From a virus (lineage: Duplodnaviria; Heunggongvirae; Uroviricota; Caudoviricetes), in IMG/VR virus record IMGVR_UViG_2568526086_000004, positions 1-36,154 of that record: a DNA stretch of 36,154 nt; one strand, given 5' to 3'. Both the position numbers and the translations under genes were made by a program. Positions within the stretch are counted from its first letter, which is position 1; each line of letters opens with the position of its first letter. This document shows, one piece after another, positions 4,266 to 15,878 of the stretch. The notes under the pieces were generated by a model. It was not told where the DNA came from. It did not search any database and saw nothing but the letters and a program-made list of their open reading frames with translations.

Positions 4266-4747
4266 GACAGCAGCCCTCCCACAGTTTTACTGATATCGCT
4301 TAATGCAGATGTTGCCGTGTCCTGCAGCTTATTCAGCTGCGAATTGAGATCACCGAACATATCGGACAGGGATTCATCCACCCGTTTGAGCGACAGGGTG
4401 AACTCAATCCGGCGCGGCATACCGTCGCGGAAAAACTCCGTTTTAGTCTGATTCAGTCCCTCAATCACATACATGCCGTAAATCGTGCCGCTACCTTCAA
4501 TCAGGGGCCATGCTTTCCCCTGTTCTGCCATCTGCTCCAGAGCCAGCAACGACAGCCTGCCGCCTGTTATCTCCGGCATAAGAACACCGGAAAGCGTCAG
4601 CATGTCGTTGTCCGGTCCCAGAAACTGCGTGGACGGACGACGGTTTACCCGGCTGTTTGCCGCATGTCGCCAGCTGCGTTGATACTGCAGTTCCTGATAC
4701 GGAACGGTGCGCAGCATAAACACGTACAATCCCAGCACCATCATCAT
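4262..4747 (-). CDS. U: Tail protein gpU
   Basis: 161-aa ORF whose start overlaps the T stop by 4 bp and whose stop overlaps the D start. Position and size fit P2 gpU. Confidence 0.85.
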   Translation of the reverse strand: MMMVLGLYVFMLRTVPYQELQYQRSWRHAANSRVNRRPSTQFLGPDNDMLTLSGVLMPEITGGRLSLLALEQMAEQGKAWPLIEGSGTIYGMYVIEGLNQTKTEFFRDGMPRRIEFTLSLKRVDESLSDMFGDLNSQLNKLQDTATSALSDISKTVGGLLS

Positions 4748-7700
4748 GCGTCGTATCCCCCCTGATCGCTGTAGTTACTCCTGGCTTTTGCCTTCAGCCT
4801 GCGTTCACGTTCATCAAGCTGGCGTGCCACCTCCCGCGCAATATCCTGCGCACTTTGTCCTGGCTGCGTCTGAATGATGATCTGCGTCGGTGCCTCAATC
4901 CGGTGAACGGGCGGCACAGTGGCTGCACGACTCACCATCGCTTCGCCGCCTTTCGCGGGAAGTGCCAAAGGATGCAACGGTGGAAGCTCTGCAGGCGCGG
5001 CAGCAACGCCCATCATTCCGGCAACAACGGCAGCCAGTGCAGCTGTATTTCTCCGGCTGGTCACATTTGCCGGGCCGTTAACAATTTCCGGCCCGTTTTC
5101 ACCGACGATGCCAAACTGCCCGCGCGGGATATACCCGCCGCTGTCATACATCCCCGCAAAGCCATATCCCCATGATGGAAAACCACCCGATGGCATCATC
5201 ACTTTACCGTCTGCATTCACCGTCGCAGGTTGCTGACGCGTCACGCTTTCCGGCAGTTTTGCCTTTGCGGCCTCTTTACTGACAATGCCGAGCTTCTCCA
5301 GCAACCAGGAAACGCCGGATTTCAGGGAGTCCAGCGGATGCATGACCATATTCAGCCCTTCCGCCAGTGCCTCCCCGAATCGCCGCCCCATTGCCGCTGC
5401 ACTCTGCAGTTCGGCAGAGGTCGACTTAACGGGCGTCAGCAGATCAGTAAACCAGCCCCACAGCGCCTGTACTTTGTCGCCAATCCACTGAAACACAGGC
5501 TTAAGTGGTTCGAATGCAGCACTGATGGGACCTGCCGCCGCTTTGAATCCTTCCACCACGCCACCGAGAAATGCGGTGATGGGTTGCCAGTATTTCCAGA
5601 CAACCAGCGCCACGCCCGCCAGTGCAGTAACCACAAGACCTATCGGACTGAGCAGAGCACCTAACAGACCAGATATGGCATACAGGGCAACGCGCAGCAT
5701 CGCCAGCGGACCAGATGCAAGCACACGAAGCACCGCGCCTACGGCAGCCAGTCCACCGCGCAGTACCGCCAGAGGATTCATAAACATCACAGCAACAGCA
5801 TGTAAAGCGGATAATCCAGACCGCAATAGTGCAACCGGCGCACCTGCTACAGTTTTCAGGACATTTCCCGTCAGTGATGCCGTACGGCGCAAAGACGACA
5901 ACGGCGCAGTAAGTAAACCCGCTGCGTTACCCGATGAAGCAAGCCCGCGTCGCAGCACTGCCAGTGGAGCGCCAGCCAGCCAGGACAACGCGCTGCTAGT
6001 TCGTGTTACTGCTGCCGTAACGGAAGGTAACGTTTTGATGCCCAGCACAGAGAATCCCAGACGGATGACTGCCAGCGGCCCCAGCACTGCAGCCAGCGCC
6101 ACAGCCAAGGTGCCGAGGCCTACGGTAACCGCAGCCACAATAGCGGCTACTTTCATCAGTGTGCCCGTCAGTTCCGGGTTAGCTTCCACCCAGCGACGCA
6201 ACGCTCCCGTAACGCTTTTCACCGTGTACAGAATATCCATCAGCGGCTGGCGCAGCGTTTCGCCCAGGCTGCTGAAGGTATTCTGCGCTCCGGTTTTAAC
6301 CAGCAACCACTGAGCAGAAAGTGAGTCCTTGTTGATGTCGGATTCTTTCTGCATGGAACCGAGCGCATCATTGCCCGCTGTCAGTTTTAGCTGGCGCTGT
6401 AGTTCCGGCAGGTTGTTTGCCAGTTTCGCCGCGTCATCGCCAAACTCTTTACCAAACAACATGGTCATGGCAGACAGACGCTTGTCCTGCGGCAGTGCGT
6501 TCACCTTCTCCAGCACACGCTGGATAGTTCCCATCGCATCCTTCGTCATCTGCTTTTCAATCACTTCAGGATTGAGTTTCAGCAGATTCATCCCTTCAAA
6601 GAAACTCTTGCTTTGCATGGTGGCAATGGACAATTCACGCACCATCGCGTTTGCTGCACTGGCTGCAACCTCCGGCGCAGCGCCCAGTGTCAGAAAGGTG
6701 GAACCCAGTGCCGCCGCTTTACGATAATCCAGACGGTCAGCCACACCGCCCAGACGTTGCATCACATCAATGATGTCCGCCCCTTTCGACATGGCGTTAT
6801 CATCCAGATAGTTCAGCGCATCGCCGAGCTGTTCAATATTGCGGGTAGGTATTTTGTAGAGCTGGGCGATTTTCCCCAGACTTTCTGACAGTTCATCCGC
6901 TGGCAGCTCAAAGGCTGTTGCCGCCTTTGCTGCCGTACTGGCGAAGGCCAGCAGGTCACGTTTCTGGTCTTCCCAGCTGTCGTCAGGGTCTGCGACGTTC
7001 ATGCGCGCACCACCTTCAACCAGTGCAGCGAAGTCCACCGCACCGTTTTCCATCGGCAACTGTTCGCTGGCAGCCTTGATGGCATCCTGCATTTCATAAA
7101 AACGTGCAGTACGGTTTCCATTATCGTCACGCAGACCATTGACCTGCTTTGCCACACCTTTCATGGCATCTTCCATGCTGGTATAGCTTTTTACTGCCGC
7201 CATCACTGGCGTCCCCATTGCCAGCCCTGCAGCCGTGGTAGTGGCTCCGGCTCCTGCAATACGATCGCGCACCTCCAGCGAACGGGCATAACTGGCACGC
7301 GCCGCATTCATCCTGCGCTGAGCTTCACCCAGTCGCTTCAGCCGCGCCTCCTGTTTCGACAATTCCTGGTTATAACGTGATGTTTCACGGGCTAAACGGG
7401 CAGTTGCTCCCGCATCATCTTTCGCAGAAATTCCCGTCCGGTACAGTTCTGCACGCACAAGCGCCGTTTGCTTCTGCAAATATTTTTGTTGTTCTTCCAG
7501 GCGTTGGACTGCCAGCGTTTGCCGACCTAAAGCCACAAGGTGCCGTTGTGATGGTTGTTCCATCGCTTCCAGCTCAGAACTAAGCAAATTTGCCTTCTGT
7601 CTGGCATAGTTCAGCCTGTCGCCTAACTTCTTGTTATCGGCCTGCAGCTTGCGAAATTTTTCCAAGCTGTTACCCGCCTGATTGAGTTGCTTTAATGCGT

Positions 7701-7821
7701 CACGGGAGTTTCTGATTGCGCCAGCCAGCTCTTTCGAACTGGCCTGTGCAGCACGGAATGGGCGGGTGAGTTTGTCAACCGCATTAAGAATGACCTGCAG
7801 GCGCAGGTTGTTATCACTCAT
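4744..7821 (-). CDS. T: Tail tape measure protein gpT
   Basis: 1025-aa ORF with a coiled-coil-rich N-terminal half, Ala/Gly-rich hydrophobic repeats in the middle and a C-terminal domain. It sits immediately downstream of E/E'. Confidence 0.9.
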   Translation of the reverse strand: MSDNNLRLQVILNAVDKLTRPFRAAQASSKELAGAIRNSRDALKQLNQAGNSLEKFRKLQADNKKLGDRLNYARQKANLLSSELEAMEQPSQRHLVALGRQTLAVQRLEEQQKYLQKQTALVRAELYRTGISAKDDAGATARLARETSRYNQELSKQEARLKRLGEAQRRMNAARASYARSLEVRDRIAGAGATTTAAGLAMGTPVMAAVKSYTSMEDAMKGVAKQVNGLRDDNGNRTARFYEMQDAIKAASEQLPMENGAVDFAALVEGGARMNVADPDDSWEDQKRDLLAFASTAAKAATAFELPADELSESLGKIAQLYKIPTRNIEQLGDALNYLDDNAMSKGADIIDVMQRLGGVADRLDYRKAAALGSTFLTLGAAPEVAASAANAMVRELSIATMQSKSFFEGMNLLKLNPEVIEKQMTKDAMGTIQRVLEKVNALPQDKRLSAMTMLFGKEFGDDAAKLANNLPELQRQLKLTAGNDALGSMQKESDINKDSLSAQWLLVKTGAQNTFSSLGETLRQPLMDILYTVKSVTGALRRWVEANPELTGTLMKVAAIVAAVTVGLGTLAVALAAVLGPLAVIRLGFSVLGIKTLPSVTAAVTRTSSALSWLAGAPLAVLRRGLASSGNAAGLLTAPLSSLRRTASLTGNVLKTVAGAPVALLRSGLSALHAVAVMFMNPLAVLRGGLAAVGAVLRVLASGPLAMLRVALYAISGLLGALLSPIGLVVTALAGVALVVWKYWQPITAFLGGVVEGFKAAAGPISAAFEPLKPVFQWIGDKVQALWGWFTDLLTPVKSTSAELQSAAAMGRRFGEALAEGLNMVMHPLDSLKSGVSWLLEKLGIVSKEAAKAKLPESVTRQQPATVNADGKVMMPSGGFPSWGYGFAGMYDSGGYIPRGQFGIVGENGPEIVNGPANVTSRRNTAALAAVVAGMMGVAAAPAELPPLHPLALPAKGGEAMVSRAATVPPVHRIEAPTQIIIQTQPGQSAQDIAREVARQLDERERRLKAKARSNYSDQGGYDA

Positions 7822-8250
7822 CGTTGGCCCCGCTTCTCTGAATCGCTTTATACCGCCATTCCAGCACTTCGGTCAGCGGCATAACGTCAGTAACGGATGG
7901 CGGCCAGTGAAAAATGGTGGCGATATCTGCTACCAGATCGTCAACCGTCAGGCTGTCGGTAAACCGGCAAGCACCGACTTCTTCAACAAAAAAGTGACAA
8001 CCTCAACCGACATGGCAGTGAGATCTGCCGGGTCCATCTCTGCAATTTCCTGTGCGGTCAGTGCCGGGCTGGAGATGCGGGGGATCACGGTAATCATCGC
8101 GTTCACATCCATATCCATAATGGCCTGCAGGCGTGTACCGCGCAGCGCACCGGACTGCGGTTTACGCAGCACAATTTCGGTGATTTCCGTTTTACCGCGC
8201 TTGATAGGGGTATCCAGTTGAATGGTCTTTTCAGTCTGCTTATCACTCAT
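7814..8250 (-). CDS. E+E': gpE+E' fusion made by programmed -1 ribosomal frameshift
   Basis: Reading by hand from the slippery site in the -1 frame gives about 57 open codons (FFVEEVGACRFTDSLTVDDLVADIATIFHWPPSVTDVMPLTEVLEWRYKAIQRSGANDE), ending in a TGA that overlaps the ATG of T. This matches the known P2 E/E' arrangement. Confidence 0.7.
7948..8250 (-). CDS. E: Tail assembly chaperone gpE (0-frame product)
   Basis: 100-aa ORF between FII and T. It contains the slippery heptamer T TTT TTG near its 3' end (plus-strand caaaaaa at 7987-7993). Confidence 0.85.
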   Translation of the reverse strand: MSDKQTEKTIQLDTPIKRGKTEITEIVLRKPQSGALRGTRLQAIMDMDVNAMITVIPRISSPALTAQEIAEMDPADLTAMSVEVVTFLLKKSVLAGLPTA

Positions 8251-8304
8251 TTTTCTGTCCTGTAAATTGGGTTCTGGCGCGGCATTCCGCGCCGTTCAGA
8301 TACA

Positions 8305-8820
8305 TCAGAGGCCGAGGGCGTTGCGGTGCGCTTCCATCAGGTCCACACCGTCCACAATTTCCACCATGTTGATAAGGTCCACTTCATAGAGCACCTCACC
8401 ATTGATAGTCAGCTTCGCGTAACTGTTGGTACTGGTCACTTTGGTGGTGTTGCTTTCGCCCGTCTTCCACTCACCGGAGTCCACTTCTTTGTGACGTCCA
8501 CGCACCACAAGCTCCACGGCCTGTACTTCCCCGGTATCATCACGCTGGATAGAGCCGGTAAAGCGCAACTGGATGCCATCCACCGTGGCTTTGCCCATCT
8601 GTTTAAACAGCAGCAGTTCAGTACCACCAATGGAAAACTCTGTGTCCAGAGCACTGTCATCAAGCCCCAGATCCACATCCACTGCACCCGGCATTCCGCC
8701 GCCGCGATACTTCTCATATTTGCGGGTGAATTTCGGCAGCGTCAGCGACTCTACGATCCCCTGCCAGTTGTTCCCGTCGTTAAACAGGTTCAGATGTTTT
8801 AATTTGCGTGGTAAAGCCAT
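8305..8820 (-). CDS. FII: Tail tube protein gpFII
   Basis: 171-aa ORF directly downstream of the sheath gene. Size and position fit P2 FII. Confidence 0.88.
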   Translation of the reverse strand: MALPRKLKHLNLFNDGNNWQGIVESLTLPKFTRKYEKYRGGGMPGAVDVDLGLDDSALDTEFSIGGTELLLFKQMGKATVDGIQLRFTGSIQRDDTGEVQAVELVVRGRHKEVDSGEWKTGESNTTKVTSTNSYAKLTINGEVLYEVDLINMVEIVDGVDLMEAHRNALGL

Positions 8821-8829
8821 GTTGTCCCC

Positions 8830-10002
8830 TTACGCGCTGACCTGGCTGGCAAAATTCACCAGGTACTGATCGGTGATGCGCTGGCGCAGCATCAGATTTT
8901 CAAGTGGCGGCACTGGTGTGTAGTCGTAGTCGATGGTGAGTTTTCCAGCTTTCAGAGTGTCTTTGTCGTTCACCGACTCATCCAGCCAGCAATCGCCACC
9001 AATGAGATAGCCCTGACTGATCAGGCTGCGCATTTTGGCGCGGATACCTTCGATAATGTCGCGGGCCAGCGACGGATTCAGCGGTTTATCGACCGCCCAC
9101 ATTGGCGCTTCTGCCATCGTGTCCATCAGCACCTGCGCCGTGCGGGTGTAGTTTTCGAAGGCAAAGAGTGGGTCATCACTCAGGCAGCGGGAACCCCAGA
9201 AGCGAAAGCCGTCTTTGCGGATAAGTGTGGTAACATCGTTCTGGTTAAGCAGTCCCGCATCAGTTGCCGGGTCCTGCAGATCCCAGAACACATCAGCAGA
9301 AATTCCGGTGACACCGTTCACGCCCACGTTGGACAGGCTTTTGTGCCACCCTGTCTGCTCATCAATTTTGGCACGCAGACCAAGCGCACGGGCGGTGGCA
9401 TATGCCGTTGCGTCGGCATTCAGCACCGTGTCCCAGCCAGTAAAGTCAGGCCAGATCAGCATCCCTTCACGCTGACTGAAGTTTTCACGGTAAGTGATCG
9501 CCTCCTGCACCGTCTTGCAGCCATACGCTGACAGGTAAGCAAACCCACGCAGGCTTTGCGCCACGCCCAGCAACTCAGTAGCAACGGCTTTATTATCGTG
9601 CCCCGGCACGCCGAGGATGCGCGGTTTAACACCGAGCTGTGACTGGGCAGATAACAGGGCTTTCATACCAGTTTTTTTACCTTCAGCAGTCACTGCGCCG
9701 ATGATATTGGTCGTGGTTTCTTCTTCCGTTTCACCCTGCGGCACACGCACAACAACGGTCACGGGTTTTGCCTGGTCAGCGATGGCATCCAGCGAGCGGG
9801 CCAGCGTACCGGATTCACCCGCCTTACCGCTGGCAGTAAGCACATCAGTGATCAGCACGGGTTTATTAAGAGGGAACATTTTTGCATCGGCATCATCGCC
9901 CGTGCAGACCATGCCCACGATGGCGGTGCTCACCGTGGTAATGGATCGAGTGCCTTCGCTGACTTCAACAACGCGCACTCCGTGGTGGTAATCCTGAGCC
10001 AT
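8830..10002 (-). CDS. FI: Contractile tail sheath protein gpFI
   Basis: 390-aa ORF with N-terminus [14 protein letters not shown], typical of myovirus sheath proteins. It is the first gene of the F operon, downstream of a TGT-N12-ACA dyad. Confidence 0.9.
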
Positions 10003-10108: not shown

Positions 10109-10522
10109 TTATCTGCTTGCAGGGAAAACAGGCCAAATAATATCAGGTGCGGTGCTGGTATCTGTTGCCGTCACAGCCTCGATATAATCCAGCACAACGT
10201 TAAGTCGGGTAGTTTCCTCTTGCGTCAGTTTGCGCCCGGCCTGCAGCTTTAACTGAATCACGCTGATATTGGCCATTGCTGCGTCTAACAGCGACTGTTT
10301 TTTCTGTTCAGCGTCAGCTACCAGTTCATCATGAGAACGTTCCTGGGTGGGTGGTGCAGTAAATCCCCCGTCTGAATAAACCCAGCCGATTCCGGGCTGC
10401 TCACTGATATCAGAAATATTAATGAGCTGCTGATTATCCGGCACTGTGAATTCAGCCTCGCCATCCCAGACAATGACATTCACAACCATCCCATTTTCAA
10501 TAACTGCATATGACGCATTCAT
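10109..10522 (-). CDS. G: Tail fiber assembly protein gpG (Tfa)
   Basis: Downstream of tail fiber gene H with an ATG/TAA overlap at 10520-10524. I chose the internal start MNASYAVIENG; the ORF track extends to 10546. Position is typical of P2 gpG. Confidence 0.8.
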   Translation of the reverse strand: MNASYAVIENGMVVNVIVWDGEAEFTVPDNQQLINISDISEQPGIGWVYSDGGFTAPPTQERSHDELVADAEQKKQSLLDAAMANISVIQLKLQAGRKLTQEETTRLNVVLDYIEAVTATDTSTAPDIIWPVFPASR

Positions 10523-12609
10523 TATGCAAACTCCTCGATAATACAAATCCCAGCTGCACCTTTCCCGCCTGTCATACTGGTTCCGCTATAACCGGCATCG
10601 TATGCGCCACCGCCACCTGAACCATATGCCTTACCACTAACACCACCGCCAGCGCCTGCGCGTCCACCGCCACCCCAGTGCGATGTTCCGCCTTCACCGC
10701 TGACGCCGATATTTCCGGACTGACCGTCGCCTCCATTTCCACCAATGATGTTGATACCGCCAGTACTTGGCACACCGCCGTTACCACCGTTCGTGTTTGT
10801 GACTCCTGATTTTCCACCACCTTCACCACCAGGGGCTATTACCGATCCGAACGAGCTATCACCGCCCTTGAGGCCGTTCGTCGCACTAACGCCGCCGGCC
10901 CCACCTGCGCCGATAGTGACAGGATAACTATCCTTCGTCAGGATCAGCGTGGTGATTACTGTCCCACCTGCCCCGCCGCCAGCACCGAAAAACGTTTCAT
11001 TATTGGATATAGCCTTGCAGCCGCCCCCTCCGCCACCGCCGCCCGTTATTGTGACCCTAATCCGTTTTGTTCCTGGCGTCGGGGTGTACGTACCTGATGA
11101 GGTGAAAACCCGGGTATTCAGCCAACGTCCAACGTATCCACTTGCATCGCTCAGACCAAGATATTGAATAACCGCCTGTGTGCTTGCTTTATCCAGAATA
11201 TTCCGTCCAACGTTAGTCAGGGTTGTCAGGCTGGCTGTATCATTCCCCGTAAAATACGGAAGTTTGTCTGCCGCAGTGGCAAGGCCTGCCAGTGCGGTCA
11301 GTGTGGCGTCGGCAGGTTGTTTTCCATTGGCAAGGTCATATACAGCCTTCACGGCTTTTGGTGTGGCAGCCTGCGTTTCTGACGTGCTGTTAGTAGCGCT
11401 GCTGAGTTGCACGGTGCCTTTTACCGTCAGTGAAGCTGCAGGCACATCCGTTATCTGATTCCACGGGTGTGTGTGACTGGCGGATGCTTTACCTGCTGCA
11501 AGATCATATGCAGCCCTCACGGCTTTTGGTGTGGCAGCCTGCGTTTCTGACGTGCTGTTAGTAGCGCTGCTGAGTTGCACGGTGCCTTTTACCGTCAGTG
11601 AAGCTGCAGGCACATCTGTTATCTGGCTCCACGGGTGCGTGTGACTGACAGGTGCCTTACCTGCTGCAAGGTCATATGCCGCCTTCACTGCCTTTGGTGT
11701 GGCAGCCTGCGTTTCTGACGTGCTGTTAGTGGCGCTGCTGAGTTGCACGGTGCCTTTTACCGTCAGTGAAGCTGCAGGCACATCCGTTATCTGATTCCAC
11801 GGGTGTGTGTGACTGGCGGATGCTTTACCTGCTGCAAGATCATATGCAGCCCTCACGGCTTTTGGTGTGGCAGCCTGCGTTTCTGACGTGCTGTTAGTAG
11901 CGCTGCTGAGTTGCACGGTGCCTTTTACCGTCAGTGAAGCTGCAGGCACATCTGTTATCTGGCTCCACGGGTGCGTGTGACTGGCGGATGCTTTACCTGC
12001 TGCAAGATCATATGCAGCCTTCACAGCCTTCGGTGTTGCGGCCAGTATTTCGGATTCACTGTTGGTCGCACTGCTTAACTGAGTAAAACCTTTTGCGGTC
12101 AGCGAGGCGTCCGGGTGACGTCGTGACTGTTCGTGCTCTGATATTTTGTCATCCACATACTTGCGGGTTGCCAGCACTACAGCAGGGTCGATTTTCAGGA
12201 TGATATTGTCCGTACTGCTGGTAATCAGCACCATGCGCACGGTCTGGGTACGCCCACTGCCTTCAGCCAGTTGCGGCTTATAGCTTTCCGGGCAGTTACC
12301 CACGGCAATCAATGCCCCGGACTCATCAAACAAGCCCACTTCACGTATCCACCAACCGCCCTCGTTTTCAGGGATCACCTGTTCAGCAATAATCTGGCTG
12401 CTGTTCTGCGGGTCGATATAAAGCATATTCAGCGCAGCCCGGCGTTTCTCATTTACCAGTGCCGTCTGCTTTGCGTCCGGCGTTGGCAATACTCCGCCGC
12501 CATCGCCCACCGCCATATGGGTAATTTTTAGCGGCACACCGAGCGCGGCGGCGCTGGCAAGTTTCGCCGCGCCAATATCCGTCAGCAGGGTATAAAATTT
12601 TGTGCTCAT
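10522..12609 (-). CDS. H: Tail fiber protein gpH with internal tandem repeats and a glycine-rich C-terminal domain
   Basis: 695-aa ORF. The first ~165 aa match the conserved P2 gpH N-terminal domain (MSTKFYTLLTDIGAAKLA...EHEQSRRHPDAS). About five ~56-aa repeats follow (ASLTVKGTVQLSSATNSTSETQAATPKAVxAAYDLAAGKASASHTHPW), then a Gly-rich C-terminus. Confidence 0.9.
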   Translation of the reverse strand: MSTKFYTLLTDIGAAKLASAAALGVPLKITHMAVGDGGGVLPTPDAKQTALVNEKRRAALNMLYIDPQNSSQIIAEQVIPENEGGWWIREVGLFDESGALIAVGNCPESYKPQLAEGSGRTQTVRMVLITSSTDNIILKIDPAVVLATRKYVDDKISEHEQSRRHPDASLTAKGFTQLSSATNSESEILAATPKAVKAAYDLAAGKASASHTHPWSQITDVPAASLTVKGTVQLSSATNSTSETQAATPKAVRAAYDLAAGKASASHTHPWNQITDVPAASLTVKGTVQLSSATNSTSETQAATPKAVKAAYDLAAGKAPVSHTHPWSQITDVPAASLTVKGTVQLSSATNSTSETQAATPKAVRAAYDLAAGKASASHTHPWNQITDVPAASLTVKGTVQLSSATNSTSETQAATPKAVKAVYDLANGKQPADATLTALAGLATAADKLPYFTGNDTASLTTLTNVGRNILDKASTQAVIQYLGLSDASGYVGRWLNTRVFTSSGTYTPTPGTKRIRVTITGGGGGGGGCKAISNNETFFGAGGGAGGTVITTLILTKDSYPVTIGAGGAGGVSATNGLKGGDSSFGSVIAPGGEGGGKSGVTNTNGGNGGVPSTGGINIIGGNGGDGQSGNIGVSGEGGTSHWGGGGRAGAGGGVSGKAYGSGGGGAYDAGYSGTSMTGGKGAAGICIIEEFA
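11265..12108 (-). repeat. Coding tandem repeat array (~168-bp unit, ~5 copies) inside tail fiber gene H
   Basis: Near-identical DNA blocks recur with a 336-bp period for the best-matching copies (for example ccacgggtgtgtgtgactggcgga at ~11461 and ~11797). They encode the repeated fiber motif. Boundaries are approximate. Confidence 0.8.
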
Positions 12610-15125: not shown

Positions 15126-15878
15126 ATGAAAAAACAGATTGCAAAAAAAATAATCAATGTGATATTTCCTGAGTTTAGTAATAAAATAACTTGGCTCTTA
15201 GTTATAACTGGAATAGGTATAATCGCACTACCAATTCCATACTATCTAATGGCTCTTAATTTTTTAATTGATATTTATAATAAAAAATTCAATACAGATA
15301 TTGATATAATAAACATAGAAAACGGCAACCCAAGCACAGTAGTGGCCATCACTTTAATTGCTTTTGGATTAATCTACAACTTATTAAGCAAAGCACCTGA
15401 GTGGTACTTTGAAATTATTAAAGACAAAGAAAACAGAGAAGCATCGGAGAGAAAAAGAGACTCTGACGTTAAGTTATATAATGAGTTTATAAAATTATTA
15501 CCACCTGATTCGAAATCAATAGAATTTCTGAAAACCCATGACTTTGGTAATACTTTTCATAACTCCAACCTTAAAGACATGAGTACGTATTGCTATGAAT
15601 GGGGAAAGGCCAATCATCATTTTCATGATGATAACATAGAAAACAAATCAATTGAATTACTCAAAGAAATAACTAAATTTAACTATTTTTTATCCTGTCA
15701 CTCTGGATATTTAAACTGTAGCGAATTCATGTCTATACTTACCGACAGAGAGAGAGCCTCGTGGGATTTAAGCCCTGAGACATCTGAAACCATAAAAAAA
15801 GCTAACAAATGGGGAACTAAAATCCATAAGATGTACTGCGACTTCATTCTATTGTGTAAAAACAACCTCAGCATTTAA
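15126..15878 (+). CDS. AT-rich cargo gene (moron) encoding a 250-aa predicted membrane protein of unknown function
   Basis: It is encoded on the opposite strand to the flanking late genes V and S, in visibly AT-rich DNA. Two N-terminal hydrophobic helices (ITWLLVITGIGIIALPIPYYLMALNFLI and VVAITLIAFGLIYNLL) precede a soluble domain rich in Lys, Asn and Cys/His. Confidence 0.7.
   Translation: MKKQIAKKIINVIFPEFSNKITWLLVITGIGIIALPIPYYLMALNFLIDIYNKKFNTDIDIINIENGNPSTVVAITLIAFGLIYNLLSKAPEWYFEIIKDKENREASERKRDSDVKLYNEFIKLLPPDSKSIEFLKTHDFGNTFHNSNLKDMSTYCYEWGKANHHFHDDNIENKSIELLKEITKFNYFLSCHSGYLNCSEFMSILTDRERASWDLSPETSETIKKANKWGTKIHKMYCDFILLCKNNLSI

Follow-up and report, generated by a model that had tools for sequence, protein, structure and literature searches.

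The P2-type E/E' frameshift site of a Fels-2-like prophage and a conserved Shine-Dalgarno-like element upstream of its slippery heptamer

In bacteriophage P2, two proteins are made from the single start codon of the tail gene E, a 91-amino-acid (aa) E protein and a 142-aa E+E' protein, the latter by a -1 shift of the reading frame at the sequence TTTTTTG, as summarised in PMC3091744 with reference to Christie et al. 2002. The same summary, citing Xu, Hendrix, and Duda 2004, presents E/E' as a case of the frameshift that is conserved in the tail genes of tailed phages, in the interval between the major tail and tape measure genes, and states that a downstream structure was not found in P2, KS5, KS14, and KL3 (PMC3091744). 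The P2 record (NC_001895) lists E, a joined coding sequence (CDS) for E+E', and, at the homologous TTTTTTG, a 'site of -1 translational frameshift', and the record of Salmonella phage Fels-2 (NC_010463; STM2699/STM2697.1) states that gpE+E' arises by translational slippage. For P2, it is known that both E and E+E' are produced in vivo and needed for tail assembly (record annotation 'essential tail protein'; PMC3091744, citing Christie et al. 2002). In this study, we analysed the E/E' locus of a P2-type prophage of E. coli in a 36,154-nucleotide (nt) stretch of viral DNA (IMG/VR record IMGVR_UViG_2568526086_000004; the window, by which we mean this whole stretch). The feature is an already known one, the textbook P2-type frameshift that is annotated in the closest named phage, and a programmed -1 ribosomal frameshift very probably allows a single start codon to give rise here to two tail assembly chaperones.

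The site had previously been described from the letters of the window alone (hereafter the sequence-only reading) with no strand given; the whole feature lies on the minus strand, as do all of the elements of the E/E' locus described below, and the coordinates were otherwise exact. Gene E (8250..7948, an open reading frame) encodes the 100-aa frame-0 product, a tail assembly chaperone that is 100% identical to WP_001281008.1 ('phage tail assembly protein') and matches Phage_TAC_7 (PF10109) over residues 9-88 (E = 2.8e-18; profile positions 1-78 of 79; 66 bits against a cut-off of 25), a family described as 'tail assembly chaperone proteins, E, or 41 or 14'. The slippery heptamer T_TTT_TTG occupies 7993..7987 in the X_XXY_YYZ phase, the E frame reading AC T TTT TTG, and the stop codon of E is the TGA at 7950..7948. 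The heptamer had been placed 13 codons ahead of this stop, and this is correct, as 12 sense codons follow it and the stop is the thirteenth. The estimate of about 57 open codons in the -1 frame was equally accurate, for exactly 57 codons follow the slip up to the TGA at 7816..7814; the -1 frame has no stop from 8002 up to this TGA, and frames 0 and -1 are jointly open across 8002..7951. The resulting E' extension (7814..7987; 57 codons and the TGA, frame -1) has no start codon of its own. The DNA between 7948 and 7986 is dual coding: frame 0 completes E there with its last 12 codons and its stop, and frame -1 specifies the E' linker. The predicted fusion E+E' has 145 aa and the junction ...SVEVVTFL/VEEVGACRF... 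(junction peptide ...VVTFLVEEVGACR), and the tryptic peptide that would span this junction, ISSPALTAQEIAEMDPADLTAMSVEVVTFLVEEVGACR, is long. A second conserved domain, Phage_P2_GpE (PF06528), covers residues 107-143 of the fusion (7823..7933) and is matched along its full profile (positions 1-37 of 37; E = 1.2e-18; 66.8 bits, the cut-off being 23), and its coding sequence lies wholly 3' of the heptamer, in frame -1. The sequence-only reading also held that the TGA of the extension overlaps the ATG of the tape measure gene T (4744..7821; 1025 aa; Pfam PhageMin_Tail; 100% identical to WP_029487410.1). The E' stop does lie inside T, but the TGA misses the ATG itself: because the ATG of T is at 7821..7819 (local sequence ATGAGTGA), the E' frame overlaps T by 8 nt.

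The locus compares closely with that of P2. In the alignment with P2 E+E' that had been proposed as a check, the proteins are ~49% identical over 96% of the reconstructed fusion, and our method of reconstruction returns the published P2 sizes of 91 aa for E and 142 aa for E+E'. P2 and the window have in common the gene order FI-FII-E/E'-T-U-D, a T_TTT_TTG heptamer in the same phase, the -1 direction, the extension of 57 codons, the 8-nt overlap between the E' stop and the T start, and both Pfam domains. They differ in the length of E (100 aa in the window and 91 aa in P2), in the distance from the heptamer to the E stop (12 codons against 6), and in the tape measure protein (1025 aa against roughly 815). 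The lineage of the window is that of Fels-2 (Felsduovirus-like) and not Peduovirus. Over a 701-nt region around E/E', which was used for nucleotide comparison with relatives, identity is 85% to Salmonella phage Fels-2, 98% to several P2-like phages of Klebsiella and Escherichia, and 100% to E. coli CE0026f, and copies that are 95-100% identical occur in ~1000 of 5426 complete E. coli genomes. Fels-2 and its close relatives (RE-2010, SEN8, SopEPhi, Klebsiella phage 4LV2017, and Escherichia phage Cartapus) have the same protein lengths of 100 aa and 145 aa as the window. In Fels-2 itself the 40 nt from the heptamer to the E stop are identical and the proteins are 87-91% identical, and the differences between the Fels-2 group and the window are point substitutions only, mainly synonymous in the E' frame.

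The site had been called conserved, and the comparison with more distant relatives bears this out, since the -1 architecture with an in-phase heptamer is present in 91/91 loci (18 phages and 73 bacterial loci). A tblastn search with the fusion against 50,697 phage records gave matches in 425, and 388 of these cover at least 80% of the query at one place, in two pieces and two frames. We compared 18 diverse phages, which include P2, Fels-2, ENT90, KS14, and Milagro as well as Shewanella, Ralstonia, Pseudomonas, Vibrio, Aeromonas, Mannheimia, and Zymomonas elements and are 33-87% identical in the E part. All 18 have the E' homology in frame -1 and a canonical in-phase heptamer within the two-frame open zone; as listed, the heptamers are T_TTT_TTG in 15 and T_TTT_TTC, T_TTT_TTT, G_GGA_AAG, and A_AAT_TTT in one each, that of Ralstonia having been confirmed separately; another count of these phages puts those with T_TTT_TTN or a different canonical heptamer kept in phase at 17/18. 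A scan of species-representative bacterial genomes yielded 78 loci, of which 73, at 34-98% identity, were complete and counted; every one of the 73 has E' in frame -1 and an in-phase T_TTT_TTN, with G as the last base in 57, A in 12, T in 2, and C in 2. In the alignment of the fusions, two conserved domains are joined by a linker of variable length, the E' motif DDLMADIAxIFHWPP...ELxxWRERAxxRSG is kept, and the 'F-L' of the junction, which is coded by the heptamer itself, is nearly invariant. A profile search of the PDB sequences found no relative (best E = 0.7), and the single-sequence AlphaFold model of the fusion was too poor for fold comparison (pLDDT 46, pTM 0.34).

The sequence-only reading had taken the intact extension frame as a sign that the tail module is under selection. 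Purifying selection on the extension frame itself is visible in the pattern of substitutions. We compared the segment that codes for E' only with Fels-2, RE-2010, and one Klebsiella relative (77-85% nt identity). The substitutions fall mostly at third positions of the E' frame, and the ratios of synonymous to nonsynonymous changes among the changed codons are 10:5, 11:6, and 13:4 in this frame; in the two control frames they are 1-3:13-17, the synonymous bias being absent there. Moreover, the 40 dual-coding nt after the heptamer contain 0 substitutions relative to Fels-2, against 17 in the next 134 nt, and the dual-coding zone is near-invariant among 32 close relatives, which is what dual coding is expected to give.

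It might be argued that a fortuitous heptamer and a fortuitously open frame have come together in a decaying prophage and have no current function. The heptamer and the open frame are, each by itself, unremarkable and weak evidence against chance: TTTTTTG occurs in 22 copies on the two strands of the window, where 10.7 are expected, in-phase X_XXY_YYZ heptamers of many kinds are dispersed across its long open reading frames, and ~6% of the -1-frame positions in these frames stay open for at least 57 codons. The locus exceeds chance by virtue of the Pfam match of the -1 frame (E = 1e-18), the synonymous bias, the lack of an independent start, and the conservation in relatives across 91 loci. 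In addition, all prophage genes are intact, and the module is carried at 95-100% identity by the ~1000 E. coli genomes mentioned above; as far as sequence goes, chance or a relic is excluded, and the probability that we would still assign to it is practically negligible. Existing annotation favours another explanation, namely that E' is an independently initiated small gene of 40 aa that needs no recoding. RefSeq/PGAP has a stand-alone 'GpE family phage tail protein' at 7936..7814 on the minus strand (L001 1965-2087), and many phage records likewise give E' as a CDS of its own. However, this CDS begins at CTG and is without a Shine-Dalgarno (SD) sequence (anti-SD pairing of -3.7 kcal/mol). We sought an ATG, GTG, or TTG in the -1 frame ahead of the E' domain and found none before 7882, and a start at 7882 would leave 22 aa and halve the PF06528 domain. 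The frame relation and the heptamer, which a separate gene would not need, are kept in 91/91 loci, and the P2 product is established as a fusion in the P2 record and in the summary given by PMC3091744. Independent initiation of E' is in our judgment highly improbable. Because E' is annotated as a separate CDS, the 145-aa product, which we take to be the real one, is absent from protein sets.

Transcription offers a further route to a fused product, in that a polymerase adding an extra U in the T6 run would generate a subset of mRNAs coding for E+E' in a single frame. The protein would be the same, and the two mechanisms are indistinguishable from sequence; all 73 bacterial loci keep the T6 run unchanged while the base that follows it may be G, A, T, or C, as transcriptional slippage would allow. 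Productive slippage in bacteria usually needs a run of about 8-9 or more A or T, which counts against it at this site. The X_XXY_YYZ phase, which a polymerase does not require, is nonetheless kept in 91/91 loci, two members of the family use the canonical heptamers G_GGA_AAG and A_AAT_TTT with no homopolymer of six, and a co-conserved SD-like element makes sense for a ribosome only. We consider transcriptional slippage very unlikely, and prefer programmed ribosomal frameshifting.

The SD-like element, GAGGTTGTC in the window (7996..8004; core GAGG at 8004..8001), is a candidate 5' stimulator of the frameshift; most Fels-2-type relatives have GAGGTGGTC upstream of the heptamer instead. Pairing with the 3' end of 16S rRNA was scanned along E in 54 non-redundant loci, and a sharp trough was found at the 9-mers that start 13 nt ahead of the heptamer, with a mean of -6.1 kcal/mol against a background of -0.56 (standard deviation 1.3); -6 kcal/mol or lower is reached at the trough in 72% of the loci and in ~10% of background windows. 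GAGGUGRUC, the motif of the family, has the form of an extended SD and is the complement of GAUCACCUC in 16S rRNA, and it stands at the homologous position in L002-L098. This pairing is stronger than the protein sequence demands. When the six upstream codons were redrawn synonymously with each locus's own codon usage, the real sequences paired at -10.4 kcal/mol and the randomised ones at -6.7 (paired Wilcoxon p = 3e-8, 54 loci), and 18-20 of the 54 loci, varying with the random draw, were in the lowest 10% of their randomised versions; nine other segments of E, treated in the same way, yielded p values of 0.3-1.0. Strict dereplication leaves the signal in place (p = 1.5e-4 with n = 32; p = 1.4e-3 with n = 18), and the different peptide contexts in which it is seen number at least 10, among them VEVV, GKVI, QVIA, GTVI, VAFA, and LGVS, these statistics being subject to the caveat that the compared sequences are related to each other. 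An SD located 6-17 nt from the second base of the slippery motif is in the range found experimentally to be stimulatory (Sharma et al. 2014, PMC4066793). By that criterion the SD of the window, GAGG with an 8-nt gap to the second base of the heptamer, would qualify as stimulatory, and so would that of 65% of the 54 loci, as compared with 7% (maximum 28%) at control positions.

An element of this kind is of interest in view of the heptamer that it precedes. In E. coli, U_UUU_UUG gives 0.118% of -1 shifting without a stimulator, 0.25% with the IS911 stimulator, and 0.77% with the IS3 stimulator, with which U_UUU_UUU gives 10% and U_UUU_UUC 7.6% (PMC4066793, Table S3). These rates, taken together with the heptamer counts, indicate that the P2 family overwhelmingly uses the weak G and A variants; U_UUU_UUG was left out of the screen of Sharma et al. 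(PMC4066793). Our literature search, beyond whose reach lay Christie et al. 2002 and Xu et al. 2004, found no SD described for P2-like E/E'. The arrangement resembles that of dnaX (heptamer A_AAA_AAG, flanked by an SD-like stimulator on its 5' side and a hairpin on its 3' side; Larsen et al. 1994, as described in PMC3711429 and PMC4066793), in which an SD-like sequence also stands shortly 5' of a tandem-slip heptamer; in the P2 family that sequence is conserved beyond coding needs. The heptamer of dnaX is, however, a different one, that of E/E' being much weaker in E. coli, E/E' is without a convincing 3' hairpin, and the shift lengthens the product in E/E' whereas it truncates it in dnaX. It is possible that the E/E' signal of the P2 family is a two-part one, in which a weak U_UUU_UUR heptamer and a 5' SD-like element under synonymous-site selection together set the E:E+E' ratio in a dnaX-like manner, and we regard the case for and against this proposal as evenly balanced. 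It would span Enterobacterales, Burkholderia, Pseudomonas, Ralstonia, and other hosts, while the literature calls the signal a bare heptamer ('no stimulatory structure'). The conserved 5' SD-like element may, judging from its conservation, be an unreported stimulator of the E/E' frameshift.

On the 3' side, a possible weak hairpin of 7 base pairs, AAGUCGG-UGCUUG-CCGGUUU (7961..7980), begins 6 nt from the heptamer. Its stem is 88% paired in 37 aligned sequences and also 88% paired in column shuffles, with no compensatory change. An alternative stem, 76% paired in the 37 sequences and with 1 compensatory pair, is no better, and the composition of the columns accounts for both values. Folding of the 57-127 nt downstream of the heptamer in the window gave z scores of -0.9 to 0.0, no better than shuffles, and no common fold was shared among distant relatives. 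A 3' stimulatory structure was rejected as unproven, in agreement with the literature (PMC3091744). We also dropped a stop codon in the -2/+1 frame just after the heptamer as a candidate element, TGT TGA in the window being TGT TGC in many relatives.

The frameshift of lambda G/GT, to which the site had been likened, has reportedly been worked out by Levin et al. in 1993 and by Xu, Hendrix, and Duda in 2004, 2013, and 2014. The analogy is a good one. In lambda as in the window, two overlapping open reading frames lie between the major tail or tube gene and the tape-measure gene, the -1 shift takes place a few codons ahead of the stop, and the longer frame ends in an 8-nt overlap with the tape-measure gene; a plentiful short chaperone and a scarce long one are expected in both. 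Lambda differs in its heptamer, G_GGA_AAG, which lies five codons ahead of the G stop, in its products of 140 aa (G) and 279 aa (GT), in having no SD-like element upstream of the heptamer (-2.1 kcal/mol), in its Pfam families, and in its non-contractile tail, that of the window being contractile. A BLASTP comparison of E+E' with lambda GT gave only E values of at least 30, that is, no detectable similarity, and E/E' is therefore an analogue and not a demonstrable homologue of lambda G/GT, a class that is defined through synteny and mechanism and not through sequence. In short, the window would work like lambda G/GT and belongs to the P2 E/E' family. The overlap has the form ATGnnTGA in the window (7814-7821, minus strand), in P2 (L004 812-819), and in lambda (L099 943-950), and is shared although the lambda proteins are unrelated in sequence; it may provide translational coupling of the rare frameshifted ribosomes to the initiation of tape measure synthesis.

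In lambda, both gpG and gpGT attach to the tape measure protein, gpGT through its G part, and gpGT also binds the major tail protein through its T part; the gpG:gpGT ratio is about 30:1, and neither gpG nor gpGT is present in the virion (PMC5009743). If E/E' operates in the way that work on P2 and lambda would suggest, most ribosomes would terminate at the E stop and give the 100-aa gpE, while a small fraction would slip back by one base with tRNA-Phe on UUU in the P site and tRNA-Leu on UUG in the A site of U_UUU_UUG; both tRNAs would re-pair on UUU_UUU, and 57 codons of the -1 frame would then be read to complete the 145-aa gpE+E'. The N-terminal chaperone domain that is common to both products would coat the tape measure protein T in the manner of lambda gpG, and the E' domain, a second and independently conserved module, would recruit the tube protein FII in the manner of lambda gpT. 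Both gpE and gpE+E' would be expected to be missing from the finished virion. The SD-like GAGG, 8 nt upstream, would probably raise the rate of shifting through pairing with the 3' end of 16S rRNA in the elongating ribosome, as in dnaX.

There are several points that weigh against this account. The fusion protein of this prophage is a prediction from DNA sequence, and the chaperone roles of E and E' are assigned by analogy with lambda, with whose proteins they share no detectable sequence similarity. A convincing 3' stimulatory structure is lacking. The stimulatory effect of the SD in the P2 family is presumed from its 8-nt gap, which is within the 6-17 nt range. Moreover, the window's own GAGGTTGTC pairs at -10.3 kcal/mol, more weakly than the family norm GAGGTGGTC (about -16 to -19 kcal/mol), and is unexceptional against synonymous randomisation (34th percentile).

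As regards the neighbouring genes, the order of the operon is FI-FII-E-T-U-D, followed by ogr, and E is located between the tube gene and the tape measure gene. Directly upstream of E is the tail tube gene FII (8305..8820, minus strand; Pfam Phage_tube, E = 9e-60), preceded by the tail sheath gene FI (8830..10002, minus strand; Pfam Phage_sheath_1 and Phage_sheath_1C). The intergenic region between FII and E contains a stable GC-rich hairpin, GGCGCGG-AAUG-CCGCGCC (8276-8293, minus strand); for the 54-nt spacer the folding energy is -17.6 kcal/mol (z = -3.4), which none of 200 shuffles equalled. The hairpin has no U-tract and is thus not a canonical terminator; in a Mannheimia phage, a terminator is annotated at the corresponding place. 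Between the abundantly expressed sheath and tube genes on one side and the chaperone and tape-measure genes on the other, the hairpin could serve to attenuate transcripts or to make them more stable.

The window begins with grxA-ybjM-ybjL and continues with a complete P2-type prophage, the insertion being between rcdA and ybjL. In the prophage, ogr is followed by D, U, T, E, FII, FI, G, and H; next come the genes for baseplate, lysis, head, and replication, and the immunity region and the integrase stand last. All of the ~44 reference-strain prophage proteins align full-length to the window without stops, and only a Fil-like open reading frame diverges; because of these alignments it is reasonable to regard the tail module as intact and probably functional, as the sequence-only reading had proposed. 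The tail fibre gene (10522-12609, minus strand; 695 aa) contains 4.2 tandem copies of a 168-nt (56-aa) unit, with the repeats at 11330-12043, and its Pfam matches are five copies of Phage_fiber_2 and a C-terminal glycine-rich domain, Gly_rich_2. In E. coli CE0026f, whose prophage is otherwise near-identical, the fibre has 639 aa and is exactly one unit shorter, which amounts to copy-number variation in the receptor-binding fibre. The immunity region (33087-34705) shows 88% identity to CE0026f in the CI repressor and 92% in the cox-like protein, with the Fil-like open reading frame only partly alignable, whereas the late genes are 99.5-100% identical; that the immunity region is so much more diverged than the late genes points to mosaic exchange of immunity between near-identical prophages.

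Several further open reading frames of the prophage may represent accessory functions. Between the replication/DinI region and the portal gene there are three of them (231, 215, and 171 aa), and a fourth (243 aa) is in a segment (~26491-27335) that is without a match in CE0026f; the four occupy 24375-26235 and 26542-27273 on the minus strand. A Pfam scan of all four gave no match, and neither did a PADLOC scan of the first three; they are candidate cargo or defence genes of unknown type. The cargo genes of P2, such as old and tin, occupy what we take to be the position equivalent to that of the 231-, 215-, and 171-aa frames. A 250-aa open reading frame (15126-15875, plus strand) is embedded on the opposite strand between the late genes S and V, a moron position, and had no match in Pfam or PADLOC. 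At 30360-32212 (minus strand), a gene for a Dam-type adenine methylase is followed by one for a PAPS-reductase-domain protein that matches the PADLOC models SspD (E = 5e-23), BrxP, and DndC; the pair may form a phage module for DNA modification or anti-restriction in the early operon.

The comparisons confirm that the tail module of this complete Fels-2-like prophage is intact and evolving under constraint. Proteome and pangenome analyses overlook the 145-aa E+E' protein that is predicted for the ~1000 E. coli genomes with the module. If the SD-like element is functional, it would explain how enough E+E' is obtained from a heptamer that by itself shifts at only ~0.1%, and synonymous mutations in it would provide a handle with which the chaperone ratios may be tuned in engineered P2-type tails and tailocins.

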